In this document: positions 26,927 through 43,634 of the stretch, piece after piece
How the letters are laid out: every line of letters starts with the position of its first letter
Position numbering within the stretch: position 1 is the stretch's first letter
NCBI GenBank assembly: GCA_944380455.1
Contig: CALWHR010000161.1
Coordinates: 1-62,855, forward strand
Direction of reading: 5' to 3'
Origin: an uncultured Clostridia bacterium
GTDB lineage: Bacteria; Bacillota; Clostridia; Lachnospirales; Anaerotignaceae
DNA: 62,855 nucleotides
Translations under genes and position numbers: made by a program
Notes under the pieces: model-generated
Databases searched by the model: none
Seen by the model: the letters and a program-made list of their open reading frames with translations, nothing else
What the model was told of the DNA's origin: nothing

Positions 26927-27148
26927 TTATGAACTTTGCTTTGATACGGCGGAGTCGAGAGAAAAAAGCCTGTTTGGAGTGCAGTTAAAAAGACCGCAAA
27001 GCTCTTCTATAACTTCGTAGCGTATGGAAGAAGTTTCGTTATTTACCATTTTATTAAAGTTCTGGTAGCTCATTCCAAGTCTTTTATAAAGCCAGTATTT
27101 TGTTTTTCCGTTCTCTTCAAGCAATTTAAGTACATCAAGTTTAAGCAT
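26927..27148 (-). CDS. Cro/C1-type HTH protein
   Basis: KTKYWL...GMSYQNFNKMVNNET.SIRYE.IE.LC..F.CTPN; AAGGAG RBS. Confidence 0.85.
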   Translation of the reverse strand: MLKLDVLKLLEENGKTKYWLYKRLGMSYQNFNKMVNNETSSIRYEVIEELCGLFNCTPNRLFSLDSAVSKQSS

Positions 27149-27328: not shown

Positions 27329-27571
27329 TTAAGAATTAAGCTTCTGCCTCCCCTCATTATCCATGTAATAGTTATCTTTATATATAAGCTCGCTGATAGG
27401 TACGATTTCATAGCCTTTTTCTTTAAGTCCTTTTAAAATTGTATCCAGCACCTGCGGCGTGTATTTAGCATCATTATGGAAAAGAATAATTGAACCGTTT
27501 GAGAGATGCTTGTGGTTAAGCACCTGGTTTATCTCAGCTTCCGGACCTTGTTCTTTCCAGTCAAGAGAATC
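27329..27571 (-). CDS. pdaB: 3' half of split PdaB-type polysaccharide deacetylase (80 aa, no proper start)
   Basis: In frame from 27571: DSLDWKEQGPEAEINQVLNHKHLSNGSIILFHND...GYEIVPISELI, carrying NodB motifs 4 and 5. Confidence 0.9.
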   Translation of the reverse strand, partial: DSLDWKEQGPEAEINQVLNHKHLSNGSIILFHNDAKYTPQVLDTILKGLKEKGYEIVPISELIYKDNYYMDNEGRQKLNS

Positions 27572-27592
27572 AGTAAACGCCAGAGAATAAAA
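27570..27592. other. Left recombination (att) site of the intervening element
   Basis: Core TC at 27570-27571 (GA on minus) followed by arm AGTAAACGCCAGAGAATAAAA, 17/21 inverted match to the right-end arm. Confidence 0.88.
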
Positions 27593-27639
27593 TGTTTTGT
27601 TTAAAATATAATATAAAAAAAGACAAAGGCGGTTTTTAA

Positions 27640-28980
27640 ATGGATGCCATTTATGTCAGACAGTCTGTAGATAAAAAAGACAGTATATCTATAGAAGCTC
27701 AGACGGAGATGTGTGTTTTGCAGGCAAATGATGAGTATACTGTTTTTGCAGACAAGGGTTTTTCAGGCAAAAACATAAACAGGCCGGCGTTTAAAAATAT
27801 GATGAGCCTGGTTAGAAGCAGAAAAATTAACCGTATTATTGTGTACAGAATAGATAGACTAAGTCGTTCTATAGCGGATTTTTCGATTTTCTGGCGTGAG
27901 ATAGAAAAGTACGGTGTTGAATTTATGTCTGTTAATGAAAAATTTGATACTTCATCGCCAATCGGCCGGGCTATGCTTTATATTATAATGAGCTTTGCTC
28001 AGCTGGAGCGTGAAACTATAGCTGAAAGAATACGGGATAATTATTTTGCCAGGTTTAAAAGAGGTGTATGGACCGGCGGACCTGCGCCTTTAGGTTTTGA
28101 TATAGCAAAAGAAAATCTTAACGGAAAAAATGTATCTTATTTAAAAGAGAACTCGGACATTGAAACAGTAAAAGCCATATTCGATACATATTACTCAGGC
28201 AAAAGCCTGTATTTTACAGCAGAAAAAGCTGCCGAAATGAGTCCTGAAAAATACTGGGACAGCCGGGCTATTTCAAGAATAATACGAAATCCGGTTTATG
28301 CCGCCTGCAGCAGCGAGATTTACTGGTACTATATCGAAAAGGGTGCAGAACCCCAGAACGAAGAAACACAATTCAACGGCATTAATGCTGCCATGCTTAC
28401 AGGAAAGGAAGGCGGCTGCGCAAAAAAACTCTCTGTTGCCGGGCACAAAGGCGTTATAGAACCAGATGTGTTTTTAAGCTGTAACAAACGCCTTGATTTA
28501 AACAAACCTGTCTGTATAAACACAAGAGGAAATTATTCTGTATTATCCGGTATATTAAAGTGCGGAAAATGCAAAAAAACAGTTAAAGTAATATATTCCG
28601 GAAAAAAACGGTATCTGTTCTGCTCAAAGGGTTGTTCTGGATTAAAAGACTTTCAGCTTGATAAACTGGAAAGTGATATTATTTCTGACGTTGATAGCTT
28701 AATTAAAAGCTGCTGTGATTGTTTAATGGAAGATGAAAAAAGTGATATTAAATTCAGAATAGGCAATCTTATTAAGGCACTGGAAGAAGGCGGAATAAGT
28801 GCTAAATATATTGAAGAAAGAATAAAAGAGCTTGAAAGTCTGAAAAACGAATGCAAAAAAGTAAACTGTGCTTTGGATATTAAATCTCTGCCGTATGAAC
28901 AGAGAAAACTTTTACTGAATCTTATAGTTGACAAAATAGTTATAAATGGAAAAACTGTCCATATTTTTTATGGATTTTAA
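27640..28980 (+). CDS. Large serine recombinase (SpoIVCA/TnpX-like)
   Basis: AIYVRQS catalytic Ser, DKGFSG.N..RPAF, YRIDRLSR, FAQLERETIAERI, CGKC...C..GC zinc ribbon. Confidence 0.95.
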   Translation: MDAIYVRQSVDKKDSISIEAQTEMCVLQANDEYTVFADKGFSGKNINRPAFKNMMSLVRSRKINRIIVYRIDRLSRSIADFSIFWREIEKYGVEFMSVNEKFDTSSPIGRAMLYIIMSFAQLERETIAERIRDNYFARFKRGVWTGGPAPLGFDIAKENLNGKNVSYLKENSDIETVKAIFDTYYSGKSLYFTAEKAAEMSPEKYWDSRAISRIIRNPVYAACSSEIYWYYIEKGAEPQNEETQFNGINAAMLTGKEGGCAKKLSVAGHKGVIEPDVFLSCNKRLDLNKPVCINTRGNYSVLSGILKCGKCKKTVKVIYSGKKRYLFCSKGCSGLKDFQLDKLESDIISDVDSLIKSCCDCLMEDEKSDIKFRIGNLIKALEEGGISAKYIEERIKELESLKNECKKVNCALDIKSLPYEQRKLLLNLIVDKIVINGKTVHIFYGF

Positions 28981-29052
28981 TATGTGTATTGACAAGAGCA
29001 TTTTTTTAAAATATTCTAATTTTAGAGAAAAGAAATTTCAGGGGGTGTTATT

Positions 29053-29445
29053 ATGTTTGAAAATCTTACTCCGGACGGAAAAATTAAAACCATACGATAT
29101 CTTAAAGCTACCCATGATGATTTTGCCAAGCTTGTTAAAGAAGGCAAAAAAATGATTCAGGATGTTGATGATATGGAGAAAAAAACAGGTATTTCGCCTA
29201 CAGATGCTGAAAGATTGGTTGAGGAAAATCCAAATAAGGAAATAGAAATCGACGGCGAGAAAAAGACTGTTTTATGGCTTTATACATACTATGTAAACAG
29301 AAAGTCAATACTTGAAGGCTATAACAGGGCGTATAAATTCCTTATGGAAGAGGGCGTTGACGAGCTTTTGTTTACTATAGGAGTTGGAAGCGACAGTTAT
29401 GACTACAACTTCTACAAATTCTGCTTAGACGCTTTTGATGAATAA
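29053..29445 (+). CDS. Hypothetical protein, 130 aa
   Basis: GGGGG RBS; own sigA-like promoter TTGACA(28989)-17 bp-TATTCT. Confidence 0.7.
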   Translation: MFENLTPDGKIKTIRYLKATHDDFAKLVKEGKKMIQDVDDMEKKTGISPTDAERLVEENPNKEIEIDGEKKTVLWLYTYYVNRKSILEGYNRAYKFLMEEGVDELLFTIGVGSDSYDYNFYKFCLDAFDE

Positions 29446-29544
29446 TGACCTTAAAACTGCCGCATGCTTATAAGGCACAGACCATAATAAACGCTGTTTT
29501 ATGGTGCAGAGCCTAAAGTATGCGGCTTTTTTGGGAGGTATAAA

Positions 29545-30204
29545 ATGAAAATTGAACTTGCCATATTCGATATGGACGGACTTATATTCGATTCAGAAAG
29601 AGCTTTTGAAAGTGAGCTGAAAGAAGTAATGCTCTCTTACGGCTACAGCCTTACATGGGATATTTATAAAAGCACCATAGGCCTTACAGGTCAAAGGCTG
29701 AAAGAAAAAATGCTGTTAAACTACGGCAGTAATTATCCCTTTGAGGAAGTAAGCAAAAAAGCAAGACAAAGAGTGAATTCTTTATCACAGTCAGGCAAAA
29801 TAGATATTAAAAAAGGCATACCGGAGCTTTTGAAATTTTTTAATGACGAAGGTATTAAATGTGCTGTTGCTTCATCTACCAAAAGTGAGTATGTTGATTT
29901 ATATTTAAAGTCAGCAGGGCTAAGAAAGTATTTTAACTCAATAACAGGCGGAGAAGAAACAGAGCGCTCAAAGCCTGAGCCGGATATATTTCTGACGGCG
30001 TGTAAAAAAGAAAACACTGCTCCGGAAAATACAGTTGTTTTTGAGGATTCGCCAAATGGTGTTACAGCTGCATTAAGGGCAGGTATGAATGTAATCTGCA
30101 TACCGGATTTGGTTTGTCCGCCTAAAGAGCTTCTTAAAAATACTTTGTTTGTGGCAAAAGATGCTTTTGAGGCTATGGAGTTTATAAAAAATGTTTTGGA
30201 ATAA
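29545..30204 (+). CDS. HAD-family phosphatase
   Basis: FDMDG, VASS, KPEPDIF, VFEDSPNG. Confidence 0.9.
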   Translation: MKIELAIFDMDGLIFDSERAFESELKEVMLSYGYSLTWDIYKSTIGLTGQRLKEKMLLNYGSNYPFEEVSKKARQRVNSLSQSGKIDIKKGIPELLKFFNDEGIKCAVASSTKSEYVDLYLKSAGLRKYFNSITGGEETERSKPEPDIFLTACKKENTAPENTVVFEDSPNGVTAALRAGMNVICIPDLVCPPKELLKNTLFVAKDAFEAMEFIKNVLE

Positions 30205-30291
30205 ATGCAATACAGATAATTAATTTATATTGACTGCCCTAAAGGGTGTGTTATATAATTACAAAAATTGTGTACTTTTAAAATTTAGTAT

Positions 30292-30444
30292 TATATGGTG
30301 CCTTTTTTTAGGAAGGATAATAGGGAAACAGGATAAGCCTGTGCGGTCCCGCCGCTGTGTTGACGGAATGTATTTATATTATGTCACTGTTTTAAATGGG
30401 AAGGCGTAAATACGTTGTGATGTCTAAGCCAGAAGACCTGCCAT
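30292..30444 (+). ncRNA. Cobalamin riboswitch
   Basis: AATAGGGAA, GCGGTCCCGCCGCTGT, CACTG..GGGAAGG, AGCCAGAAGACCTGCC; terminator at about 30519-30562; lies upstream of cbiM. Confidence 0.92.
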
Positions 30445-30584
30445 GTAATAAGGAAGCTTATTTGTTGCGGTGTATAACAAATTTGTGTTCAATGGGCTTT
30501 TTTAAAAAGCCTTATTTTGCTGCGCGTATTTGTTGTTGCTTTCAAATACGGGCGGCTTTTTTATTTATCAAAAGGAGGATTTAT

Positions 30585-31334
30585 ATGACAAAGAAAGAAA
30601 AGAAAGTATTTTTATTAACATCAGTTTTGTGCCTGTTTTTTGCTGTTCCACAAAAGGCACAGGCTATGCTCATTATGGAAGGATATCTTCCGCCTAAGGA
30701 CTGCGTTTTGTGGTTTGTATTGTGTATTCCTTTTATTGCTGCGGGATTTATGTCGCTGAAAAAGATAACTGCTGAAAACAAAAAAGCTCTTATTATATTG
30801 GCAATGGCTGGAGCTTTTACATTTGTGCTTTCATCACTTAAAATACCGTCTGTTACAGGCAGCAGTTCACACCCAACAGGAACGGGTTTTGGTGCTGTTA
30901 TATTCGGGCCGTGGGTAATGAGTATTATTGGTGTTATTGTACTTGTTTTTCAGGCACTTCTTTTGGCTCATGGCGGTATTACAACTCTTGGTGCCAATAC
31001 CTTTTCTATGGCTGTGGCAGGTCCTTTTGTGTCTTATGGTGTTTATAAGCTTTGCAGAAAATTAAAAGTCGGAAAGTTTATTTCTGTGGCTTTATCAGCA
31101 GGCTTAGGGGATTTATTTACATACTGTGTAACATCTTTTCAGCTTTCATTGGCTTATCCGTCGCCAAATGGCGGAATAATTATGTCTATGGTTAAGTTTT
31201 TGGCTATATTTGCTGTAACTCAAATACCACTTGCAATTATTGAGGGCATAATAACGGCTTTGGCGTTATCTGCCATTGAAAAAATTTCGGATATAGATTT
31301 TGATAACAAAGGTATTTTAAAAATGGAGGCGTGA
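30585..31334 (+). CDS. cbiM: Cobalt ECF transporter substrate component CbiM (His2 replaced by Leu)
   Basis: Signal peptide, then MLIMEGYLPP, VTGSSSHPTG, LAHGGITTLGAN; ATG 30585 behind AAGGAGG. Confidence 0.9.
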   Translation: MTKKEKKVFLLTSVLCLFFAVPQKAQAMLIMEGYLPPKDCVLWFVLCIPFIAAGFMSLKKITAENKKALIILAMAGAFTFVLSSLKIPSVTGSSSHPTGTGFGAVIFGPWVMSIIGVIVLVFQALLLAHGGITTLGANTFSMAVAGPFVSYGVYKLCRKLKVGKFISVALSAGLGDLFTYCVTSFQLSLAYPSPNGGIIMSMVKFLAIFAVTQIPLAIIEGIITALALSAIEKISDIDFDNKGILKMEA

Positions 31335-31338
31335 AAAT

Positions 31339-31641
31339 ATGAATTTATCTCTTAAAAAAGTTATTGCTTGTTTGTTAGTTTGTGTTGCTATAGCAGTTTT
31401 TCCCATTTTAACAAACCATACATCTGATTTCGGCGGCTCTGACGATGCAGCAAGTGATGAAATTTCTCAAATAATAGGTCATGAATATGAACCTTGGGCA
31501 TCGCCAGTTTTTGAACCGCCGGGCTCTGAAACTGAATCACTTCTTTTTTGCCTTCAGGCAGCTTTAGGTGCCGGGGTATTTGGTTTTGGATTAGGTGTTC
31601 TTTATGAAAAGAATAAAAAATCCAAAAAAGACACTGTTTAA
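31339..31641 (+). CDS. cbiN: Cobalt transporter CbiN
   Basis: FGGSDD, YEPW.SP.FEPPG.E.ESLLF.LQAALGAG. Confidence 0.9.
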   Translation: MNLSLKKVIACLLVCVAIAVFPILTNHTSDFGGSDDAASDEISQIIGHEYEPWASPVFEPPGSETESLLFCLQAALGAGVFGFGLGVLYEKNKKSKKDTV

Positions 31642-31653
31642 GGGTATGTTTAT

Positions 31654-32424
31654 ATGATTAATTCGGTATATATTACAGAATATATAAAAAATGTAAACCC
31701 AAACATAAAAACAGTTTTTGCATTAAGTGTTATATTATCATGCGTAATATTTAAAGAACCTTTAGGCTGTATATTTGCAATGTCTGTTATGTGGGCATTA
31801 ATTATAAAAAACTGCCGTTTAAGCAGGCATTTAATTTGTCATATTGTTCTGTGGCCGGTTTTGTTTATTGCATTTAGTTCTTTTATGGTGGCATTTGATA
31901 TAACCAATTACAAGGGAGAAATATTTTCTTTTAAAATAATAAATAGTTATTTTTTAACTGTAAATGCACAAGGAGCTAAAAAAGCCATAAGGCTGTTTTT
32001 TACATCTGCTGCGTCTTTAAGCTCAATGTATTTTTTATCTTTTACAACGCCTGTAAATGATGTTGTCTATGTGCTTAAAACCATAAAATGCCCTAAAGAA
32101 ATAACAGAGCTTTTTATGCTCATTTACAGGTTTATATTTATTGTGCTTAATATGGCACACAGCATTATTACAGCGCAGAATTGCCGCATGGCACAAAGGA
32201 CATTTAAAACACGCATTAATGCTATGGCACTTATGCTCTCCAGTGTTTTTGTGCTTTCCTATAATAAGTCGCTTTTTATGTATAATGCCATGTTAAGCCG
32301 GTGTTACAGCGGAGATATTAATTTTTTAAATGAAAAGTATGACAATAACAGAAAACATGTGCTCTTTGCTGTAGTTGTTGTTTTAGTTATTGTTTTAATA
32401 AGTGCTTTGGAGCGTGTATTTTAA
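31654..32424 (+). CDS. cbiQ: Cobalt ECF transmembrane component CbiQ
   Basis: FTTP, ELFMLIYRFIF, AQ..R, AMLSRCY. Confidence 0.85.
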   Translation: MINSVYITEYIKNVNPNIKTVFALSVILSCVIFKEPLGCIFAMSVMWALIIKNCRLSRHLICHIVLWPVLFIAFSSFMVAFDITNYKGEIFSFKIINSYFLTVNAQGAKKAIRLFFTSAASLSSMYFLSFTTPVNDVVYVLKTIKCPKEITELFMLIYRFIFIVLNMAHSIITAQNCRMAQRTFKTRINAMALMLSSVFVLSYNKSLFMYNAMLSRCYSGDINFLNEKYDNNRKHVLFAVVVVLVIVLISALERVF

Positions 32425-33251
32425 TGGATTATATTATTAATACCAAGGGTTTAAGCTACAGCTACCATAACGGACAAAAGGCTCTTTTTGATGTTAATAT
32501 AGCCATAAAACCGGGAGAAAAAACAGCTGTTATAGGTTCAAACGGTTCGGGAAAATCCACATTATTTCTGTGTTTAAACGGCATAAACAAGCCACAAAAA
32601 GGAGATGTATTTTTTAAAGGCAATAAAATTGATTATTCATCAAAAGGACTTTTAAATTTAAGGCGGTCTGTGGGAATAGTTTTTCAAAATCCTGATGATA
32701 TGATATTTTCTTCAAGTGTAAGGCAGGACATAGCTTTTGGGCTTTTGAATATGGGTTTTTCAAACAGTCAGGCAGAAGAAAAAATAAAGAGCATTTCAAA
32801 ATTTCTAAATTTGGAAGGCCTTCTTGATAAGCCTGTTCATGAATTAAGCGGAGGAGAGAAAAAAAGAGTTTCTCTTGCCGGTGTTATGGTTATGGAACCG
32901 GAAGTTATTATACTTGATGAGCCGGGAGCATATCTTGATACTTTAAATGCCAAAACAGTTTACAAAATAATAGACAGTTTAAGCCAAAAAGGCAAAACTG
33001 TTATTATATCAAGCCACAACATGGACTTTGTTTTAAACTGGGCCGACAGTGTAATTGTGCTAAAAGAGGGAAAAGTGGTTTTTAACGGCAGAACAGAAGA
33101 TTTGTTTTTAAATAATGAGCTTTTGAACTTTGCTGTCTTAGATGAGCCCCAAATAATAAAAATCTATAATATGCTTATAAATAAAGGTGTTATAGAAGCT
33201 GGTGCTCCTGTGCCTAAAAACATAACAGAGCTTGAAATGCTTATTAAGTAA
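32424..33251 (+). CDS. cbiO: Cobalt ECF ATPase CbiO
   Basis: GSNGSGKST, VFQNPDD, LSGGEKKR, ILDEP. Confidence 0.9.
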   Translation: MDYIINTKGLSYSYHNGQKALFDVNIAIKPGEKTAVIGSNGSGKSTLFLCLNGINKPQKGDVFFKGNKIDYSSKGLLNLRRSVGIVFQNPDDMIFSSSVRQDIAFGLLNMGFSNSQAEEKIKSISKFLNLEGLLDKPVHELSGGEKKRVSLAGVMVMEPEVIILDEPGAYLDTLNAKTVYKIIDSLSQKGKTVIISSHNMDFVLNWADSVIVLKEGKVVFNGRTEDLFLNNELLNFAVLDEPQIIKIYNMLINKGVIEAGAPVPKNITELEMLIK

Positions 33252-33310
33252 TCTTTTAATACAGCCTTTGTAATGGTATACTTTATTTATAACATTTAGG
33301 AGGGCATAAA

Positions 33311-33994
33311 ATGGATTTTTATTTTTCAGGTGATTTGGATAATTTAAAAGATTATATTGATTTTAACAGCATTGATTTAAGCAGTGTGGGCGGTTATGAC
33401 AAAACAGAGTTTAAGTTTTTTAACGGCAAAACGCCGGATACGGATGACTTGATTATATCTGTAGACGGGTATTTTGACCCGGAATATGATATTCTTGGAA
33501 GCAGGTTTTTGTTTGTTGTTGCTCCTGACGAAAAAGAGCTTAAAAAAGCTCTTTCTCAGGCGGAGAAAAAGGAAGCGCAGTTACCGTTTTTCCCTATGGA
33601 CTGGGAAGCAGACGGAAAAGAAAGATATATTTTAAGCTATGTTTTGTGCTTTGATAATTTTAAGGATTGCGCTCAGATGGCAATGGTGCTAATGGACAGC
33701 ATAAAAGGAAATGGATTTTTTAATCTGGATTTAGACGCTTTTAACGATGAGTTCGGTACAAAAAGCGGAAGTTTAAAAATAATAAAAAGCGCCCAAAAAG
33801 AAGAACTTATTAAAGATAATTCTCTTAAAGGCACTTTTACCGTTTTTTACTGCAACAAAGACAAAGACGCTATGGAGCTTATTTATGAGAGCAGGAAAGA
33901 CTTTTCTTTTGAAAACTCACCTTCCAACAGCCATTTTTTACAGCTGTTTTATGTAAATGACGAAACGAATTATAAATGCTTTTACTGGCGTTAA
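33311..33994 (+). CDS. Hypothetical protein
   Basis: AGGAGG RBS, 227-aa ORF, no confident family. Confidence 0.65.
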   Translation: MDFYFSGDLDNLKDYIDFNSIDLSSVGGYDKTEFKFFNGKTPDTDDLIISVDGYFDPEYDILGSRFLFVVAPDEKELKKALSQAEKKEAQLPFFPMDWEADGKERYILSYVLCFDNFKDCAQMAMVLMDSIKGNGFFNLDLDAFNDEFGTKSGSLKIIKSAQKEELIKDNSLKGTFTVFYCNKDKDAMELIYESRKDFSFENSPSNSHFLQLFYVNDETNYKCFYWR

Positions 33995-34560
33995 ACGGTG
34001 ATTAAACCGGCCATACCCAAAATTATTCCTATTACTGCCGAAAGCACAATAACAAGTATAGGGTGTACCTTTTTAATACAGCCTGCTGTTGAAAGGGCAA
34101 ATATGCCTAATGATGCCAAAAGCAGTGGACTTATTTCAAAGCTTTCCTGCCAAAAAGGCGAAAAAACGGTTATAAATACTGATAAAACTGAGGAGAGTAC
34201 AAGGGCACAGGCTGCCGGTCTTAAACCGAACAAAGCACCTTTTACTGCCCAATGATTGCTGAAAGCTTTATAACAGCGGGCAAGTATAAGTATGACTATA
34301 AAAGACGGCGCCACAACTCCGCCTGTAGCGCATACAGCGCCTAAAACACCGGCAGAACGCATGCCTATATATGTGGAAATATTAATGGCAAAAGGGCCGG
34401 GAGTGCTTTCGCTTATGGCAAGAAAGTTAACAAGTTCTTCCATAGTTGTCCAGCCGTGGTTTAAAACCTCGGTTTGTATAAGGGGAAGCATGGCGTATCC
34501 GCCGCCGAATGTAAATGCGCCTATTTTAAAGAAGGTTATAAAAAGTGTAATGTATATCAT
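33991..34560 (-). CDS. Short-chain chromate transporter (CHR) subunit
   Basis: KIGAFTFGGGYAM, SESTPGP, GLRPA. Confidence 0.9.
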   Translation of the reverse strand: MIYITLFITFFKIGAFTFGGGYAMLPLIQTEVLNHGWTTMEELVNFLAISESTPGPFAINISTYIGMRSAGVLGAVCATGGVVAPSFIVILILARCYKAFSNHWAVKGALFGLRPAACALVLSSVLSVFITVFSPFWQESFEISPLLLASLGIFALSTAGCIKKVHPILVIVLSAVIGIILGMAGLITV

Positions 34561-35105
34561 TGTTTTGAGTCCTCCTTTTTTGTAACAGCGGCACGTATTA
34601 TGCCTGCGGCGGCGCAGAAAATAAGCATTAAAATGGCGTTTATTTTAAATACAGCTACACATATAAATGTAAGTATAATAAGAAATACATTAACTGGCGT
34701 TTTTTTAAAGCTTTTATAAACAGACAAAAATGCGTTTATTATAAGCGATAAAACGCCTATTCTTATGCCGTAAAAGGCAAATGATACAATTTTATTTTCT
34801 TTAAAGGCTTCTATAAAGAATGAGAGTATGGCTATTATAGCAAATGACGGAACTACAACTCCAAGGGTGGCGGCTGCGGCGCCTAAGAAGCCATGTTTTT
34901 TGTAGCCTACAAATGTGGCAATATTTACGGCTAAAGAGCCCGGAGTACTTTCGCTTAGTGAAATCATGTCTATAAGCTCGTTATAAGAAATATATTTGTG
35001 TCTGTCAACAACTTCATGCTGTATAAGTGGGAGCATAGCGTAGCCTCCGCCAAATGTAAAAGCACCTATTTTGGCAAATATGATGAAAAGATTTAAGCAG
35101 TCCAG
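34557..35105 (-). CDS. Short-chain chromate transporter (CHR) subunit, probable CTG start
   Basis: Frame extends upstream of ATG 35036 through KIGAFTFGGGYA to CTG 35105, which lies behind AAGGAG. Confidence 0.82.
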   Translation of the reverse strand: MDCLNLFIIFAKIGAFTFGGGYAMLPLIQHEVVDRHKYISYNELIDMISLSESTPGSLAVNIATFVGYKKHGFLGAAAATLGVVVPSFAIIAILSFFIEAFKENKIVSFAFYGIRIGVLSLIINAFLSVYKSFKKTPVNVFLIILTFICVAVFKINAILMLIFCAAAGIIRAAVTKKEDSKQ

Positions 35106-35252
35106 TTTAATCAGCTCCTTAAAAAGTTTAAGCAGGTTTTAGTTTACAGCCATGTTTAAGCATTGTCAAATCAAAATACAGAAAATAAAACAAAAAAGTA
35201 CGAATTTCTTAAAGATTTTCGTACTTTTTATTTGTGTCATTTATATTAATTT

Positions 35253-36428
35253 TTACTCAAGGCAGCCTAAAACTGTGGCAAAGAACTTTGTGCGCTCTTT
35301 AATTGACGGCATGTTTACACATTCGTCAACCGTATGTATGTCTTTAAATTCTGCCGAAAGGGCATCTACAGTAGGTATGCCAAGGGAGCTGAAATATGCT
35401 CCGTCGGTAGCTCCCGGAACATAAAGCTCATTAATTTCCATGCCCAAAAGCTCAGCAGGCTTTTTAAGTGTGTTAAATGCTTTTGTATTCTGAGGTCCTT
35501 TTTCCATAGCAGGAAAAAGTGTATGATATTTTACTTTTACCTTGCAGCCTTCAACTGTAACACTGTTTTCAAGGGATTTAAGATTTGCTTCTACGGCAGC
35601 AAAATCTGAATTATAAGGTATTCCAGCAACACAAAATTCACAGTGAGCGCTTCCGGCTACAATACCGTTTGGTCTTCCGCCTGAAACAGGGGCTACGTTA
35701 TAATAAATGCCTTTTTCGTAATCGTTGAAGTTATAAAACTCAATTATTTTGTGCGCCATTTCAAGTATGGCACTGCGGCCTTCAAGGTAAGCACAGCCGG
35801 CATGAGATTCTTTTCCCTCAATATCCATAGTGCCAAGTATTACTCCGCGGCGGGCAGTTACAAAACCATCTTTGCCGTCTTCTTTTTCGGCACCTTCAAA
35901 AACAAAGGCATATTCTGCATTTTGAGCTTCTTTTGCATATAATTTGCTGCCGGAAGCTGTGCCAATTTCCTCGTCGCAGTTGAATATAAACTCAATTTCC
36001 TTGTTTGGAAGAAGTCCGGCGTCCTGCATAGCTTTTACAGCAAATATTGAAATCATAACACCGCTTTTGCAGTCAGCTATGCCAAGACCGTAAGCCCAGT
36101 CGCCTTCAATATGAAAAGGATGAGATGCTGTAAAGCCTTCACCAAAAACCGTGTCTATATGTCCGTTAAGTATTATTTTGCCGTTTGGGTTTTGTGGTGT
36201 TATTTTTGCTGTTATATGGCGGCCAAGGCCTTTTTCGTGGTGTATTTCAACATCAGCACCCATTGATACAAGTAAGTCTTTTAATAAATTTACTACTTTT
36301 TCGTTGCCTTCTTCGTTTCCTGTGCCGCAGTCTATAGCTGAGAATTTTTTTAAGTATTCCATTTGGGAAGGAAAGTATTTTTCGGCACCTTCTGTAGCAG
36401 CTTTAACTATTTTTTCGTAATCTTTCAT
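35253..36428 (-). CDS. M20-family metallo-amidohydrolase/peptidase
   Basis: GHIDTV, GIADCKSG, DEE.G, FE, HAG, GATDG, HTVDE. Confidence 0.88.
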   Translation of the reverse strand: MKDYEKIVKAATEGAEKYFPSQMEYLKKFSAIDCGTGNEEGNEKVVNLLKDLLVSMGADVEIHHEKGLGRHITAKITPQNPNGKIILNGHIDTVFGEGFTASHPFHIEGDWAYGLGIADCKSGVMISIFAVKAMQDAGLLPNKEIEFIFNCDEEIGTASGSKLYAKEAQNAEYAFVFEGAEKEDGKDGFVTARRGVILGTMDIEGKESHAGCAYLEGRSAILEMAHKIIEFYNFNDYEKGIYYNVAPVSGGRPNGIVAGSAHCEFCVAGIPYNSDFAAVEANLKSLENSVTVEGCKVKVKYHTLFPAMEKGPQNTKAFNTLKKPAELLGMEINELYVPGATDGAYFSSLGIPTVDALSAEFKDIHTVDECVNMPSIKERTKFFATVLGCLE

Positions 36429-37519
36429 TGTACTTCATCTTCTCCCATGTAATAATCCTGGTCTATACAGTCGGTATAAACTTCCGAAACATCTATTTTT
36501 TCGTTTAAAAGGCCGTTGTCATAAAGCCAGTTTATGTTTTCAAGATAGCAGTTAGGGTCCTGTGCAAGGAAAGGAGAGAACTCTTTTTCCATCATAGGCA
36601 AAAGTATATTTATGCTCTCTGTTTCAACTTCCGGGTCAAGAGGGAAGTTGTCCTCGTTTTGGTTTGCAAGAAGAATGTTAAGTGTTCCTTCCGGGTCTGT
36701 TTTCATGTCGTAAAAGCCTTTTGAGCATGCTCTTAAAAAGCTATGGTATTTTTCGTAGTTTTCATCAATACTGTCTTTGCCGGCAACAAAAACAAGTGAG
36801 TAATAGTTTGGCACCCCATATTCAGAAGGAACAAAGTAGCTCATAGGGAAGCCTTCTTTTTCAAGCTGAGGTATCTCGTGGTTTATAAAGCAGCCGAATG
36901 TAGCATCTACATTTCCTGTTGTCATGGCGCTCATAAGGTCAAAGCCTACGTTTATTAGATTTACTTTGTCTATTGAAGAGCCGTCACTTTCCATCATGGC
37001 ATTAATTACTGCCTCGCTGAAAGCCACACCTGTATAGCCAAGTGTTTTGCCTTCAAGGTCTTTAGGGCGGGTTATATTTTTTTCGCTTAAAGAAGCTATA
37101 AGGTCAAGAGGTTCCTGAACTACAGAGCCTATTATTTTAACTGGAACATCTTCGTTAGCTATAGCCATAATTATATCGTCCTGATAATAAAGACCAGCGT
37201 CTGCTTTGCCTGCTGCTGTAAGTGATATGGCATCATTGCTGTTTGAAGGGAAAAGAATATTTACGTTAAGGCCTTCCTCTGCAAAATAGCCTTTTTCTAT
37301 TGCGTCATAAATAAAAGCATGTACAGCATTAGGGTACCAGTCAAGAACAAGGTCAAAGTCCTCAAGCTCTGTATTTTCAGATGTTTCACTTCCTGATGCG
37401 GAAGAAGAGCTTTGAACTGAGCTTCCTGAAACGGCTGATGATGTGCTGCCTGATGAGCAGCCGGCAAGGCATGATACAGTAAGTACTGCTGTAAGTGCCA
37501 TGGTGATAAGTTTTTTCAT
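36425..37519 (-). CDS. NMT1/THI5-family lipoprotein (ThiY-like pyrimidine-binding protein)
   Basis: Lipobox LAGC, LDWYPNAVH, FINHE, YGVPNYY; downstream of a TPP riboswitch. Confidence 0.87.
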   Translation of the reverse strand: MKKLITMALTAVLTVSCLAGCSSGSTSSAVSGSSVQSSSSASGSETSENTELEDFDLVLDWYPNAVHAFIYDAIEKGYFAEEGLNVNILFPSNSNDAISLTAAGKADAGLYYQDDIIMAIANEDVPVKIIGSVVQEPLDLIASLSEKNITRPKDLEGKTLGYTGVAFSEAVINAMMESDGSSIDKVNLINVGFDLMSAMTTGNVDATFGCFINHEIPQLEKEGFPMSYFVPSEYGVPNYYSLVFVAGKDSIDENYEKYHSFLRACSKGFYDMKTDPEGTLNILLANQNEDNFPLDPEVETESINILLPMMEKEFSPFLAQDPNCYLENINWLYDNGLLNEKIDVSEVYTDCIDQDYYMGEDEVQ

Positions 37520-37555
37520 TTTTGAATTTCCTCCTTTTTGTGTTAATCTGCGGAC

Positions 37556-37686
37556 AAAAAAATCCTTCCACTAAGGGAAGGATATAATAATCTTTTTATT
37601 TTGTATGCTTCCCTACGCTGGTATTAACCAACAGGTTCAAAGGGTCAGGTTTTAACCTTCTCAACATAAAGTTCCCCCGCAGATAT
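37556..37686 (-). ncRNA. TPP riboswitch with terminator
   Basis: Minus strand GCGGGGGAAC..TTGAGA...ACCCTTTGAACCTG.TGGTTAATACCAGCGTAGGGAAGC, then ATCCTTCC..GGAAGGAT-T run. Confidence 0.93.
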
Positions 37687-37827
37687 TTAATTTACAGATT
37701 CATTATACAGCAAATACTGGAAATTACAACATAAATTTAATATAAAACGACATGTATTAAAAATTTATTTTAAGTAAAGAACCAGTGCGCTGTAAGTTTT
37801 GTGTCTTATAACGCACTGTTTTTTATT

Positions 37828-40800
37828 TTACTGTCTTACCTGATGGTCTTTAAACTTTGAACCGAAAAGCTTATTTTTTGTTTTTTTAGAAACATTTTTT
37901 AAACGTATCGCCTCAACAGCAGAGTATAAAACAGGTATGAAGAAAAGAGTTACAAGTGTTGATATTGAAAGACCGAATATAATAGCTACAGCCATAGGAC
38001 GCTGCATTTCGGTACCTTCTCCAATGGCAAGTGCCATAGGAACCATACCTATAACTGTTGTAAGTGTTGTCATAAGTATAGGTCTTAAACGGTTAGGTCC
38101 GGCTTCCTCAAGAGCTTCTATACATTCCATGCCGCGACCCCTAAGCTGGTTTGTATAGTCAATAAGCACGATACCGTTATTAACAACCATGCCGACAAGC
38201 ATGATAAAGCCCATAAATGTAACAGATGTAATAGAATTTCCTGTTATAAAAAGACCAAATACAGCGCCTGTTATAGCAAGAGGTACGGCAAACATAATAA
38301 GGAAAGGATGAATAAGTGATTCAAACTGAGAAGCCATTATCATGTAAACCAGGGCAAGAGCTACAACAAGAGCTAAAAGCAGACTCTGGAATGTTTCAAC
38401 CATTGTTTCTATATCGCCTGTAAACTCATAACTGCATCCATCTGGGAATGAATACTGGTTAAGGAGATTTACTATGTTCTTTTGAGCCTGATTAGAATCT
38501 ATTCCATTAAGGTTTAAACCTATAGTAAGGTATTTATGGTTGTCTTTACGAGTTATGCTTGTTGCAGATTCATCAGTTGAAATATCTACAACATCTGTTA
38601 TAGGTATTATTCCTCTTGATGTCTGTATTGTAACTTTCTGAAGGTCGTTTAAATAATTTACGCGGTCTTCATCATCTTGAATAATAACATCTATTTCATC
38701 GCCGTCTATTTTATACGTTGTAGCGGTGCTGCCGTTTACGGCAGTTGAAAGAGTGCTGGCTACAGCTGATGTTGTTAGGCCGTACTGAGAAGCTTTTTCT
38801 CTGTTTATAACTACGTTTGCTTCAAGTACGCTTGTTTCTGATGAGTTAACAACATCTTTTGCCCAAGGCTGCTGCTCAAGAAGCTTTTCTATTTCATATC
38901 CTGCCTGACGGAGATTGTCAATATCGTCACCGTTTATCTGTATTTCTACGTCATTTGCTCCTGAGTATGAGCCCATGGCTGAGCTTGATGAAGATACGCT
39001 GATATCAGCACCAGGGATGGTTTTAACACGTTCTTTTATATCTTCAACAATTTCGTCCGTTGAGCGGTCACGCTCTTTTACGCTTACAAAGTTAAGATAA
39101 ATAGAAGCTGTATCTGTTTGGCTTGAACCTGTAAGCATTGAAGCTGTGCTTGAGCCTGCCATAATATAATATTCTTCTGTTTCAGGTATGTCGCTAATGC
39201 GGTTCATAACTTCATTAACAACATTTGTTGTTTCGTCTATTACAGTACCAGAAGGCATTTCGATACTTATTGAAGCCGAGCCTTCATCCATAGTAGGCAT
39301 AAGGTCAAAGCCAACAATTGGTATAAGACCAATTGATATTATAAATATCAATGTTGTAACCAAAAGAGTTCTTTTTTTGCGTCTTAATACAAAATGAAGT
39401 GCTTTTCTGTAAGATGAATCAAGCTTATTAAGGACTGCCTCCCATTTATTGAGAAGCCTGCCTATAGGACCGCCTTTTGAAAGATTTTCTGCACTTCTTT
39501 CTTCATGAACAAGAAGCTTGGAGCAGGCCATAGGCACAAATGTAAGTGACACTACAAGAGATGCGCCCAAAGAGAAGCATACTGTAAGTGAAAGGTCTTT
39601 AAACAGCTGGCCTATTGTACCGGAAACAAACATAAGCGGTATAAATACAGCTACAGTTGTAAGAGTTGAGGCCATAACCGAAAGTCCCACTTCCGAAGCA
39701 CCTGTTTCGGCAGCTTCTTTTGCCGGATAACCCTTTGAGTGGTATTTATATATATTTTCAAGCACAACAATGGAGTTATCTACAAGCATACCTATACCTA
39801 TTGTAATACCGCCTAATGATATTATGTTAAGGGTCATATCGCAGGCATACATTAAGGCAAATGTTGCTACAATTGATGTAGGTATTGAAACTGCTATAAT
39901 AGCTGATGTACTTATACTTCTGAGGAATATGAAGAGCACTATAACAGCAAGTATAGCAGCCTGAAAAGCTGTTGTAAGCACGTTATTTACCGATGTTCTG
40001 ATATAATCCGATGTATCAGAGAGCATTTTTATGCTTAAATCAGGGTACTGCTGACTTATTTTGGCTATTTCAGCGTTTATTTTATCTGAAATATCAACTA
40101 TATTGGCATCAGACTGTTTGCTTATTGCCATAATAACGCTTTTACTGCCGTTAACTATTGCATATGAGTTTTCGTCCTCTGTTGTAAGCTCAACATCAGC
40201 TACATCTCTTAAACGCACAGTGCTTCCGCCTGATGTTGTAAGAATTATATTTTTTATATCATCAAGAGATTTAAATTCGCCTACGGTTTTAGCCGTTATT
40301 TTTGTTGAGCCGTTAGTAATCTGACCTATGGGCATATTAATGTTTTCTGCTTTAAGGGCGTTTGTAATTTGTGATGCCGATATGCCGTAGCCATTCATTT
40401 TATTGCTGTTTAGTGTAATATTTACAACATCGTTTAATCCGCCTATTACGCTGACGGAAGCTACGCCATCTATTTTTTCAATATCGCTTGATACATTTTC
40501 GTCAACAAATTCTGTAAGCTCGGCTATATCCATTTTTTCAGAACCTACGCCTACTACTATTGAAGACATTTCATTTATATCCAGCTTCATAACCATTGGC
40601 TCACTGGCATCATCTGGCAGAGTACCTTTTATAAGGTCTATTTTTTCCCTAAGGTCAGAAGCGGCTGTATCTATGTTTGTTCCGTCAACAAACTGAATCA
40701 TAACCATTGACGAGTTTGATGAGGAGGTGGAAGAAACGGTATCTACATTGCTTACGGTACCTACAGCTTCTTCTATAGGTTTTGTAATAAGGTTTTCAAT

Positions 40801-40971
40801 TTCTTCAGGGCCTGCGCCTACATAAGTTGTGCTGACTATAGCCATTGGTATATCCATAGAAGGCATAAGGTCGAGCTTTAATGTTGAAAGTGATATAACG
40901 CCGGCAAGTATTACTATTAATATTGCCATAACAGTAGTTACCGGGCGTTTTATAGCTGTTTTAATAGGCAT
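37828..40971 (-). CDS. RND efflux permease (AcrB/SwrC-like)
   Basis: IKRPV, GMLVDNSIVVLENI, GMVVNNGIVLID, RLRPILMTT. Confidence 0.95.
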   Translation of the reverse strand: MPIKTAIKRPVTTVMAILIVILAGVISLSTLKLDLMPSMDIPMAIVSTTYVGAGPEEIENLITKPIEEAVGTVSNVDTVSSTSSSNSSMVMIQFVDGTNIDTAASDLREKIDLIKGTLPDDASEPMVMKLDINEMSSIVVGVGSEKMDIAELTEFVDENVSSDIEKIDGVASVSVIGGLNDVVNITLNSNKMNGYGISASQITNALKAENINMPIGQITNGSTKITAKTVGEFKSLDDIKNIILTTSGGSTVRLRDVADVELTTEDENSYAIVNGSKSVIMAISKQSDANIVDISDKINAEIAKISQQYPDLSIKMLSDTSDYIRTSVNNVLTTAFQAAILAVIVLFIFLRSISTSAIIAVSIPTSIVATFALMYACDMTLNIISLGGITIGIGMLVDNSIVVLENIYKYHSKGYPAKEAAETGASEVGLSVMASTLTTVAVFIPLMFVSGTIGQLFKDLSLTVCFSLGASLVVSLTFVPMACSKLLVHEERSAENLSKGGPIGRLLNKWEAVLNKLDSSYRKALHFVLRRKKRTLLVTTLIFIISIGLIPIVGFDLMPTMDEGSASISIEMPSGTVIDETTNVVNEVMNRISDIPETEEYYIMAGSSTASMLTGSSQTDTASIYLNFVSVKERDRSTDEIVEDIKERVKTIPGADISVSSSSSAMGSYSGANDVEIQINGDDIDNLRQAGYEIEKLLEQQPWAKDVVNSSETSVLEANVVINREKASQYGLTTSAVASTLSTAVNGSTATTYKIDGDEIDVIIQDDEDRVNYLNDLQKVTIQTSRGIIPITDVVDISTDESATSITRKDNHKYLTIGLNLNGIDSNQAQKNIVNLLNQYSFPDGCSYEFTGDIETMVETFQSLLLALVVALALVYMIMASQFESLIHPFLIMFAVPLAITGAVFGLFITGNSITSVTFMGFIMLVGMVVNNGIVLIDYTNQLRGRGMECIEALEEAGPNRLRPILMTTLTTVIGMVPMALAIGEGTEMQRPMAVAIIFGLSISTLVTLFFIPVLYSAVEAIRLKNVSKKTKNKLFGSKFKDHQVRQ

Positions 40972-40974
40972 TTA

Positions 40975-42375
40975 TTATTCCTCCTTTTTGTCGGAATCAG
41001 CGGAGGATGAGGCTGATGGTGCTGTTTCTTCCGATGTCTGAACTGGTTCTTCACCGTTTAATAAAGCTTCATTGCTTTCAGCGTTGTATGTATCAGGTGC
41101 CACTTCAATATGGTCTCCGTCTTCAAGGTATGTCTGGCCTTTTATTACTACGTCCATATTTTCTGTAAGGCCGCTGGTTATTTCTACTTCGTTTCCGTTT
41201 TCTATGCCTGTTTGAACAGGTGTTTTAACGGCTTTGTTATCTTTCATTACAAATACGTATTTTTCACCGCCTTTGGATATAACGGCATCTACAGGGATAA
41301 CAATTGTTTCATCGCTTTTATCCTTTACAAAGTTTACCTCTCCGAACATGCCGCTTTTTATATTGCCGTCGGCATTGTCTATTTCTATTTCAACGTCATA
41401 TGTTCCGCCTTCATTTGCGGCAGGATTTATGGTTTTAATAGTGCCTATTTTATTTATGCTTGATACAGCAGGTATATTGACAGAAACGGTTTCGCCTGAG
41501 CCTATGGAGTTGATTATTTCTTCTGAAACGCTTACATTCATTGTTACCTTTGATATATCTGAAATTTTAAATGGCTCACTTGAAGCAAGTATTGTTCCGG
41601 CATCAACATTTCGTGCAGTAACATAGCCTGAAATAGGGCTTTTTACAACTGCGTCAGAAAGAGATTTATTATATGAATTAATCTGAGCTACAACACTTTC
41701 TTTTGAAGCTTGAGCAATATTAAGGGCGTCCTGAGCTTTTCTCAGATTTTCTTCAGGCATCTGCATTACAAGGTTATAAGACTCTTTAGCCTGATTATAG
41801 GATATTTCTGCATTGGAATATGCGTCTGAGATATTATCCATATCGGTTTTGCTTATAATGCCGTTTTCATAAAGAACTTTATTGTTTTCATAGTTGGTTT
41901 TAGCTGTGTTGTAAGCTATTTCAGCCTGGCTGAGAGCGTTTTTGGCACTTTCTATCTGGCTTTGCATTGAAGCGCCGTTTACAAGGTCAAGGTTTGTCTG
42001 AGCCGACTGGATATTGGCTTCAACAGAAGCTAAAGAAGCTTCCGCAACCTTTTTTGAATTAAGTATGTCGGATGTATCCATTGTATAAAGTACATCACCG
42101 GCATTTACATAGTCTCCTACGTCAAAATTAACAGATGCTACTTTTCCCTGTATTGTGCCGGAAACAATAAGTTCTTCAACAGGTTTTACAGTGCCGCTGT
42201 AAAGATACTCGTTTTTAATTGATTCTGATGAAGTATTTAATACTTCAACATATGTAACCGGTGTGTTTTCTGCGGAGCTTACAGCTTGACCGTCATCACT
42301 TTTGCCGCAGCCTGTAAAAAGTGATGAGGCAACAACAGCAGCTATTAAAACTGATGGTATAATTCTTTTTTTCAT
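40975..42375 (-). CDS. RND membrane-fusion (adaptor) lipoprotein
   Basis: Lipobox FTGC, lipoyl-like G.V..GD, coiled coil, SPISG.V; ATG 42375. Confidence 0.9.
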   Translation of the reverse strand: MKKRIIPSVLIAAVVASSLFTGCGKSDDGQAVSSAENTPVTYVEVLNTSSESIKNEYLYSGTVKPVEELIVSGTIQGKVASVNFDVGDYVNAGDVLYTMDTSDILNSKKVAEASLASVEANIQSAQTNLDLVNGASMQSQIESAKNALSQAEIAYNTAKTNYENNKVLYENGIISKTDMDNISDAYSNAEISYNQAKESYNLVMQMPEENLRKAQDALNIAQASKESVVAQINSYNKSLSDAVVKSPISGYVTARNVDAGTILASSEPFKISDISKVTMNVSVSEEIINSIGSGETVSVNIPAVSSINKIGTIKTINPAANEGGTYDVEIEIDNADGNIKSGMFGEVNFVKDKSDETIVIPVDAVISKGGEKYVFVMKDNKAVKTPVQTGIENGNEVEITSGLTENMDVVIKGQTYLEDGDHIEVAPDTYNAESNEALLNGEEPVQTSEETAPSASSSADSDKKEE

Positions 42376-42388
42376 TAAAAATATCCTC

Positions 42389-42841
42389 CTATTCAAAAAC
42401 TTTGTTTAAACTGTTAATGCCGATTTTTAAATTTTCTTTCTGCTTTTCATTTAATGTTTTGTAAAAATCAGTGAAGGCTTCGCAAATTATCTCATCGAAT
42501 TTTTTTGTTATTTCCTCACCTTTTGATGTAAGCCGCAAATGAACGGTTCTTTTGTCTTTATCATTGGGCAGCTGTGTTTTATAAAGGAGACCAGATTTTT
42601 CCATTTTTGCTATAGTTAAGGAAAGACTGCTTTTGCTAATGTTAAACAGTTCCTCAAAACCTGAGATGTTGTCTATATCCCCATGCCTTAAAGCTATTAA
42701 AATTTGAAACTGCCTCATGGATATTTCAAACTGGCCTTTGCCGTTTATATTGAATTTATTTCGCATAAAACACCCCAGCCGCATGTTAAACGCAAAAAAA
42801 TCGTTTACAAGTTTTGATAAATTTTCCTGTGAATTTTCCAT
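42389..42841 (-). CDS. MarR-family regulator
   Basis: ISKSSLS..IAKMEKSGL...DKDKR...LTSKG. Confidence 0.85.
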   Translation of the reverse strand: MENSQENLSKLVNDFFAFNMRLGCFMRNKFNINGKGQFEISMRQFQILIALRHGDIDNISGFEELFNISKSSLSLTIAKMEKSGLLYKTQLPNDKDKRTVHLRLTSKGEEITKKFDEIICEAFTDFYKTLNEKQKENLKIGINSLNKVFE

Positions 42842-42890
42842 TTATTTATCGTCTCCGTATTAATAAAAACGCTATACTATATTACGAAAA

Positions 42891-42922
42891 TTGATTTTAC
42901 TATAAAACTATATTTGTGTCAA
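42891..42922 (-). promoter_or_regulatory. SigA promoter and probable MarR operator of the MarR-MFP-RND operon
   Basis: Minus strand TTGACA-17 bp-TAAAAT overlapping an imperfect palindrome. Confidence 0.7.
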
Positions 42923-43077
42923 TATAATTATATTCTTTTAATTTTACGTTATATTCAGCTATTATATTTGAAGGTTTTTATATAAAATATTTAATATTTT
43001 TAATTTTTGTATTTTGGGTTGACAGCACATATAGTTTTGTGATAAAACTAAAATTACAGATTTCAAAAGTGCATTTT

Positions 43078-43100
43078 TTTTATTTACTGGCATTTGCTTC
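43078..43100. other. Right recombination (att) site of the intervening element
   Basis: Arm TTTTATTTACTGGCATTTGCT followed by core TC at 43099-43100. Confidence 0.88.
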
Positions 43101-43634
43101 AACATCCCACTGGATAGGGTAATAGCCGCAGTCATTGGCTGTTTGTATTACAGTGTTGTTGTATTCGCCAAAAGGCGGCCTGAATAAATTCATGCTTATG
43201 CCTGTTAAATTAAGCACTTTTTCATGTGTCTGCTCAAGCTCAGTTTTTATCTGTTCTGATGATAAAGTATTCATATGCGGATGAGTGGCGGAATGATTGC
43301 CTAAATCATGACCGGCTTCGGCAATTTTTTTGACTTCCTCAGGGTATTTGTCTACCCAGTAGCCGCACATGAAAAACGTAGCCTTTACATCGTTTTCACT
43401 AAGTATTCTAAGGAGCTCATCTGTATCATCTGCTCCCCAGGCAGCATCAAAACTGACAGAGATTTTTTTTTCCGGTGTATCTACGCAGTAAATAGGCAGT
43501 TTTCTTTCGCTTTGAGCAAAAGAGCTGAAAACGCTTACTGCTGCCGGGCGGGTAAAAGAGAGCAGGCACAAGGCAAATATACAGGCCGAAATTAAAACAA
43601 ATAAACGCTTTTTTACTTTAAATTTTTTTTTCAT
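43080..43634 (-). CDS. pdaB: 5' half of split PdaB-type polysaccharide deacetylase (178 native aa plus 6 element-derived aa)
   Basis: N-terminal TM, LPIYCVDT, SFDAAWG, GNHSATH, FRPPFG; ends IQWDV|EANASK* before motifs 4 and 5. Confidence 0.92.
   Translation of the reverse strand: MKKKFKVKKRLFVLISACIFALCLLSFTRPAAVSVFSSFAQSERKLPIYCVDTPEKKISVSFDAAWGADDTDELLRILSENDVKATFFMCGYWVDKYPEEVKKIAEAGHDLGNHSATHPHMNTLSSEQIKTELEQTHEKVLNLTGISMNLFRPPFGEYNNTVIQTANDCGYYPIQWDVEANASK

Follow-up and report, generated by a model that had tools for sequence, protein, structure and literature searches.

A 15.5-kb insert with a large serine recombinase gene splits a pdaB-like sporulation gene in an uncultured Clostridia bacterium

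Introduction

Insertions in sporulation genes have been described for sigK, spsM, spoVFB, spoVR, gerE, yabG, cotJC and spoIIID, as far as the portions of the reports available to us extend. The skin elements are found in sigK and are associated with SpoIVCA in B. subtilis and with CD1231 and CD1234 in C. difficile (PMC5025042, 10.1101/2022.02.25.481979). The SPbeta prophage is found in spsM, together with SprA and SprB (PMC4191935). The gerE-intervening element gin of Bacillus cereus ATCC 10987, with GirC and GirX, is a 28.6-kb exogenous island of low guanine-plus-cytosine (GC) content; it encodes three recombinases as well as a directionality factor, and its overlap is 9 bp long (PMC5595907). 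In Calothrix sp. NIES-4101 the fragmented nifBHDK genes are restored in terminal cells by excision and inversion over hundreds of kb (PMC11249958). Here we describe an insert of this kind in a stretch of 62,855 nucleotides (hereafter the window) from an uncultured gut Clostridia bacterium of the Anaerotignaceae (GCA_944380455.1, contig CALWHR010000161.1), where a 15.5-kb element with a large serine recombinase gene splits a pdaB-like gene for a polysaccharide deacetylase of the spore cell-wall type. It is likely that the gene is rebuilt by cutting out the insert, probably during spore formation.

Like gin, the element is a non-phage insert with a large serine recombinase that splits a sporulation gene in frame. 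Unlike gin, it has one recombinase, a 3-bp overlap, host-like GC content and a cargo of host metabolic genes, it is fixed through a genus and it resides in another target. It differs from skin in that the target is a deacetylase and not a sigma factor (sigK is intact), in that no directionality factor was found in the element, and in that its relatives show inverted halves and very long spans. With SPbeta it shares a phage-derived serine integrase site within a spore-envelope gene, and a prophage occupies the same pdaB site in a related genome (G036), whereas the window element carries no phage genes. The likeness to nifBHDK of Calothrix lies in the recombinase genes that adjoin the sites and in the several breaks within one gene. 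Calothrix, however, forms heterocysts and not spores, and restoration was sequenced there while it is deduced here.

We regard the insert as a skin- and gin-like element, a well-known class, in a target that was found in no paper. No report of a pdaB-intervening element was found in the literature, leaving aside Abe et al. 2013 (Mol Microbiol) and the supplements of 10.1101/2022.02.25.481979. The main texts of PMC5595907 and PMC4191935 contain neither 'pdaB' nor 'deacetylase'; 'deacetylase' does not occur in PMC10747680, PMC6907783, PMC12286644, 10.64898/2026.07.08.737213 and PMC10083194 (nor does either word in the 8 supplements of the last), and 'pdaB' does not occur in PMC12700454 and 10.1101/2022.02.25.481979. 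No precedent was found for restoration by inversion in spores, a point at which no search was aimed alone; the heterocysts of Calothrix provide one, according to the available part of that report (PMC11249958).

The split pdaB-like gene

The best family match for both gene halves is TIGR02764, the sporulation deacetylase PdaB (149.7 and 67.3 bits). The curated cut-off of this family is 237.4 bits; the intact gene of a bacterium of the same genus (G008) scores 231 bits, and a B. subtilis control was also below the cut-off in the same search. The gene parts are located as follows.

43099..43634, minus strand: 5' part, pdaB-like polysaccharide deacetylase, codons 1-178 up to I-Q-W-D-V (TIGR02764 positions 1-131, E 7.8e-44; PF01522)
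27329..27571, minus strand: 3' part of the pdaB-like gene, D-S-L-D-W-K to the stop (TIGR02764 positions 129-191, E 1.5e-18)

As it stands, the 5' part is a complete open reading frame (ORF) of 184 aa that runs on to a stop at 43080. The 3' part is without a start codon of its own and there is no space for its own promoter. In-silico removal of 27570-43098 gives a 777-bp frame of 258 codons with zero internal stops, so that, as in elements of the skin, gin and SPbeta class, a sporulation gene is split and its frame is restored by precise removal. Both sigE and sigK are intact in the window genome.

Attachment sites

The chromosome carries the attachment (att) sites attL and attR; attP and attB are the predicted products.

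27549..27592, minus strand: left junction, attR-type (element arm, GA core at 27570-27571, gene arm)
43078..43121, minus strand: right junction, attL-type (gene arm, GA core at 43099-43100, element arm)
27570..43098, no strand assigned: predicted excised segment, 15,529 bp (15,497-15,534 bp in G002, G004 and G006)

There is a strong case for excision at the GA dinucleotide. An initial annotation of the window, made from the letters alone, had stated that the two ends share 3 bp only and that the predicted circle junction is an imperfect palindrome centred on GA. Both statements were reproduced exactly. The overlap of the ends is TCA (27570-72 and 43099-101), with adjacent bases differing on either side, and the circle junction is symmetric at 17 of 21 positions, base for base as annotated, but at 3-9 of 21 when the centre is moved by 1-4 bp. 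A symmetry of 17/21 was reached in 0 of 200,000 random joins of window sequence and in 6 of 200,000 arm shuffles. The restored gene site, TCCAGT-N8-GA-N8-ACTGGA, also reads as annotated, but the symmetry claimed for it is weaker: 7 of 14 positions are symmetric (3,099 of 200,000 shuffles; 0.015), and four of the six palindromic attB bases are found in every intact gene checked, supplied by the Q-W and D-W codons. The annotation had further spoken of a complete set of recombinase, attP and attB. This stands for integration and otherwise not, no directionality factor having been found inside the element. The annotation identified neither the pdaB-like target nor its connection with sporulation.

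Contigs from public runs bridge the left integrated junction (X2, 27340-27666; X5, 27387-27710; X17, 27462-27612) and the right one (X2, 42952-43228), which argues against an assembly artefact; X2 and X5, two of the three bridging runs, may belong to the source study. A degenerate motif for the circle junction of the genus had 0 matches in the metagenome collection. A generic att-like pattern was no more frequent in the window than expected by chance.

The recombinase

27640..28980, plus strand: large serine recombinase, 446 aa, with catalytic Ser9, recombinase domain, four-Cys zinc ribbon and a shortened coiled-coil region (PF00239, PF07508, PF13408)

Domain matches and the predicted fold support the view that this 446-aa protein is an intact large serine recombinase, with predicted recombination activity. 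PF00239 was matched with an E-value of 1.6e-35, and PF07508 and PF13408 were above cut-off. Residues Y5, R7, S9 and D72-R73-S75-R76 are invariant in 16 of 16 aligned sequences; in the zinc ribbon C308, C311 and C328 are invariant and C332 nearly so. The structure model has a helical hairpin at 362-403, and its top Foldseek matches are serine integrases (E 4e-16), with Bxb1 and phiC31 among the matches. The region from zinc ribbon to protein end is the shortest measured, 139 aa versus 158-185 aa in recombinases with an adjacent small ORF (see below). The ten shortest recombinases in the comparison all lack such an ORF; eight of them come from one clade. The genus has eight split genomes, and in a quick tree their recombinases group in a single clade (SH-aLRT 99) with G027 as sister. 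Elsewhere the window genome has three tandem large serine recombinase genes (G000:C56:6386-11116) and single ones on C51, C55 and C112.

Selection on the sites and the gene halves

Comparison with relatives indicates that the att sites and both gene halves are under selection. In all 38 paired junctions the break lies at the GA of the same Asp codon, and this GA is the sole constant. GA follows the W-D-V codons at 61 of 61 unique 5'-half junctions; at the 57 3'-half junctions the Asp codon would by itself supply it. The common core of a pair is exactly 2 bp (GA) in 9 of the 38 and 3 bp in 10. The attP arms co-vary: the match to the own partner is 15.1 of 21 versus 9.6 in cross pairs (0 of 20,000 permutations), and within the family 14.9 versus 10.7, although kinship inflates these contrasts as well as that between split and intact genes below. 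Symmetry was preserved in 196 of the 282 cells where both arms depart from those of the window. Imperfect inverted attP arms of ~21 bp, as characterize the att sites of serine integrases, are thus present. Furthermore, positions 11-16 of the gene arms (the outer, zinc-domain attB motif) match the attP arms best at +5 bp, with a value of 0.55 for the 3' gene arm; a structural model places the outer motif 5 bp nearer the core in attB than in attP (PMC3783163). The proposal in the initial annotation of a GA core flanked by inverted arms holds over the 38 paired junctions, as do the co-variation of the attP arms and the 5-bp displacement of the outer motif. The full attB palindrome (6/6) was found in 21 of 38 split genes versus 1 of 21 intact ones (from ~32 full-length top matches), and two silent positions make the difference.

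The 3' half differs from that of G002 by 28 synonymous and 0 non-synonymous substitutions. Versus four close relatives, the 3' half has a ratio of non-synonymous to synonymous substitution rates (dN/dS) of 0-0.015, the 5' half one of 0.04-0.07 and the recombinase one of 0.12-0.14. Since the 3' half is conserved without a start codon, it must be used, and this requires rejoining.

Distribution and variant arrangements

Of the 37 family genomes compared, the gene is split at this codon in 21 and unsplit here in 15, and 1 gave no match. A recombinase orthologue (E<=1e-77) is present in 21 of 21 split genomes and in 0 of 15 unsplit ones, where the best match is 2.9e-65. In species genomes, 52 of the best 80 recombinase loci have a pdaB half within 10 kb, with Lachnospiraceae, Oscillospiraceae and other Clostridia among them, while 4 of 80 viral contigs bearing this recombinase touch a pdaB half. 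Cultured strains with the split include Anaerotignum lactatifermentans An390 (L096) and Bengtsoniella intestinalis BP47G (L066). Insert sizes range from 2.5 to 16.8 kb in single loci and from 29 to 73 kb in others. The insert of ~39 kb at the same site in G036 is a prophage with portal, terminase and helicase genes.

The halves are inverted in 2 of 26 same-locus pairs, with attP arms that are still symmetric (18 and 16 of 21). In G001 (L025:470-14225) the pair spans 13.2 kb with a gerA operon between the halves, and in L090 (7438-11883) 4.2 kb. With halves inverted and arms symmetric, recombination would restore the gene by inversion and not by excision. In G027 (L035/L036) the same element ends are found on separate contigs, with at least 177 kb and the core genes asd and dapA between them. 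Those of G020 (L041/L042) are separated by at least 184 kb, and prkC-, rsgA- and rpe-family genes adjoin the site. These inverted and long-span cases rest on draft assemblies, and GC skew did not distinguish excision from inversion in G020 or G027.

Cargo of the element

The remaining genes of the element are listed below.

29053..30204, plus strand: 130-aa protein of no family and HAD hydrolase; orthologues flank the intact pdaB of G008
30279..33251, plus strand: cobalamin riboswitch and cbiMNQO cobalt transporter
33311..37688, no strand assigned: 227-aa protein of no family, two chromate-transporter-family genes, M20 peptidase and NMT1/THI5 binding protein with thiamine pyrophosphate (TPP) riboswitch
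37828..42841, minus strand: resistance-nodulation-division (RND) permease, adaptor and MarR regulator

By annotation, the cargo consists of host metabolic genes and is not phage. No phage structural, packaging or replication gene and no conjugation gene was found among the element ORFs with NCBIfam and Pfam; two ORFs belong to no family and had no PHROG match. The GC content of the insert resembles that of the flanks. G002, G004 and G006 have the whole cargo in common with the window, and G007 is without the cobalt genes. The G008 genome lacks the recombinase, and its pdaB (L030:42-6768) is intact and has orthologues of four cargo genes on its two flanks, indicating that the cargo is resident host DNA.

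The cobalamin riboswitch is located at 30279-30459 (plus strand) and the TPP riboswitch at 37592-37688 (minus strand). The 312-aa CbiM ORF call overlaps the former, so its true start is likely downstream.

Candidate directionality factor and promoters

A conserved ORF of ~40 aa lies directly upstream of the recombinase gene in ~40 relatives (e.g. L026:3699-3824); that of G012 is 42 aa long. No Pfam or PHROG family matched it; by its position and size it is a likely candidate for a directionality factor. The best match in the window genome is a 38-aa ORF on another contig (G000:C72:19500-19613, L242:1501-1614), with a weak E-value of 0.019, which is kept with a ribosome-binding site in 4 of 8 relatives of the genus. 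A profile of the candidate factor gave 2 strong and a few weak matches over 61 genomes; it missed the G000 ORF and is thus no measure of presence or absence.

27587..27612, plus strand: weak promoter motif of sigma-E-like type (ATA, 16 nt, ATATAAT) that precedes the recombinase gene and overlaps the att arm

This motif occurs in the same register in 6 of 9 clade members versus 43 of 1,616 upstream regions of genome ORFs (2.7%), having been picked after viewing the site. It also includes a sigma-A-type TATAAT. Among all pdaB-linked recombinases, just 15 of 71 had a sigma-E-like motif upstream (shuffle mean 4.4), and such a motif is therefore no general feature. In the available parts of the reports, SpoIIID binds ybaN in B. 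subtilis (PMC517825) and three deacetylases of C. difficile are under sigma-E control (PMC3789822).

Proposed mechanism and alternative explanations

Exchange between attL and attR at the GA dinucleotide would yield the 258-codon gene and a 15,529-bp circle. Excision would take place only in the mother cell, which dies, and the insert would stay in the spore. Such a restriction would explain both its inheritance through the genus and its filling with host genes (cobalt, thiamine-related uptake, efflux). The insert would be retained since excision in the germ line would discard useful genes. The trigger would likely be either timed transcription of the recombinase with the shortened coiled coil or a directionality factor from outside the element. 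The system likely descends from a prophage, because the G036 element at the same site is one.

Several observations weigh against developmental excision. The attB or attP joint was observed in no contig of 8 of the 21 public runs listed, whose depth of ~2-5 is too shallow to show one, and neither joined form is present in the window's own assembly. Kin are non-independent, and at genus level the symmetry of own pairs is 15.6 versus 13.7 for cross pairs; the 5' gene arm shows a weak preference for +5 (0.39) over +6 (0.35). There is no homologue of the candidate directionality factor inside the window element. Upstream of pdaB only a -10-like box is present (8 of 10 genomes), with no matching -35. 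The intact gene in G008, a genome without the recombinase, means that the split is dispensable and can be lost. Finally, mother-cell timing is suggested by analogy with skin (PMC5025042), ybaN and the C. difficile deacetylases, with orthology to this gene assumed.

Three other explanations have been considered. Excision might be real but non-developmental, occurring in any cell, either rarely or in response to stress, with the deacetylase restored in a subpopulation as in phase variation. The TATAAT within the motif upstream of the recombinase would fit this, as would the very short coiled-coil region, loss of the coiled coil being described, in the available part of the source, to deregulate a serine integrase (PMC3783163). 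Vegetative loss, however, would discard riboswitch-controlled uptake genes, insert size and content are constant in four genomes whose recombinases are 70-75% identical, and the best family of the target is a sporulation gene; we consider this explanation improbable. It is even harder to credit that the element is an autonomous mobile island that spreads its cargo, the split of the gene being incidental. The G036 prophage at the same site, the four viral contigs that touch a pdaB half and a cargo that is wholly different between lineages do suggest mobility. However, the annotated ORFs here include no phage or conjugation gene (two are of no family), one recombinase clade serves the eight split genomes of the genus in a fixed vertical pattern, cargo orthologues lie beside the intact G008 gene, and the G027 element ends enclose asd and dapA over at least 177 kb.

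Equally remote is a dead relic, in which the locus would be a pseudogene or the halves would act as separate proteins without recombination. No excised form was observed and the 5' half is a complete 184-aa ORF, as a relic would allow, but the att arms co-vary and the 3' half, without start or promoter, shows purely synonymous change versus G002. The break presumably falls between the deacetylase catalytic motifs 1-3 and 4-5, and this separation also counts against a relic or separately acting proteins.

Beyond excision of this one insert in sporulating cells, a wider proposal can be made, which we put forward tentatively and hold to be distinctly less probable. A phage-derived integrase may have been turned into a host enzyme for programmed chromosome surgery, with the att sites as chromosomal landmarks. 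The mother-cell pdaB would then be switched on by a 15-kb excision (most species), by inversion (G001, L090) or by a rearrangement of at least 180 kb of the core chromosome (G027, G020). The coiled coil would have been shortened and the adjacent directionality gene lost, the enzyme working without such a factor or with one encoded elsewhere. If true, this domesticated integrase would give spore formers an equivalent of the programme by which Calothrix heterocysts combine excision and inversion.

Significance

Rebuilding by excision would make pdaB one of the few sporulation genes that are controlled by DNA rearrangement, and this on a large scale, as 52 of the best 80 loci lie beside a pdaB half. 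Annotation would call such split pdaB genes two fragments. Prophage, 2.5-kb remnant and forms that are filled with host genes, inverted or very long make up a series in which domestication of such elements can be tested. Furthermore, the dozens of recombinase, attP and attB sets with one fixed core and co-varying arms form a natural data set on site recognition, and may provide tools for genome engineering.

Additional observations

Besides the main split, pdaB of nine genomes has a second one, located at the S-F-D-A-A-W-G motif (aa 64-66). Two split sites in one pdaB mean that two rearrangements would be needed. A different large serine recombinase adjoins the second split in L037, L072 and L101.

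Second-split loci: L037:8957, L047:350, L051:1870, L055:1758, L066:20018, L072:14317 and 21080, L093:8008, L101:3914 and 8459, L131:11879

G053 (L039:5864-16723) has an intact pdaB plus two extra fragments nearby, one of which is a second copy of the 3' half whose 5' flank is foreign. In the window a gene for a 73-aa Cro/C1-type helix-turn-helix protein (26927-27148, minus strand) follows the pdaB 3' half, outside the element. The same arrangement is found in the genus, in G012 and in G027, and the protein is 79-99% identical where compared.

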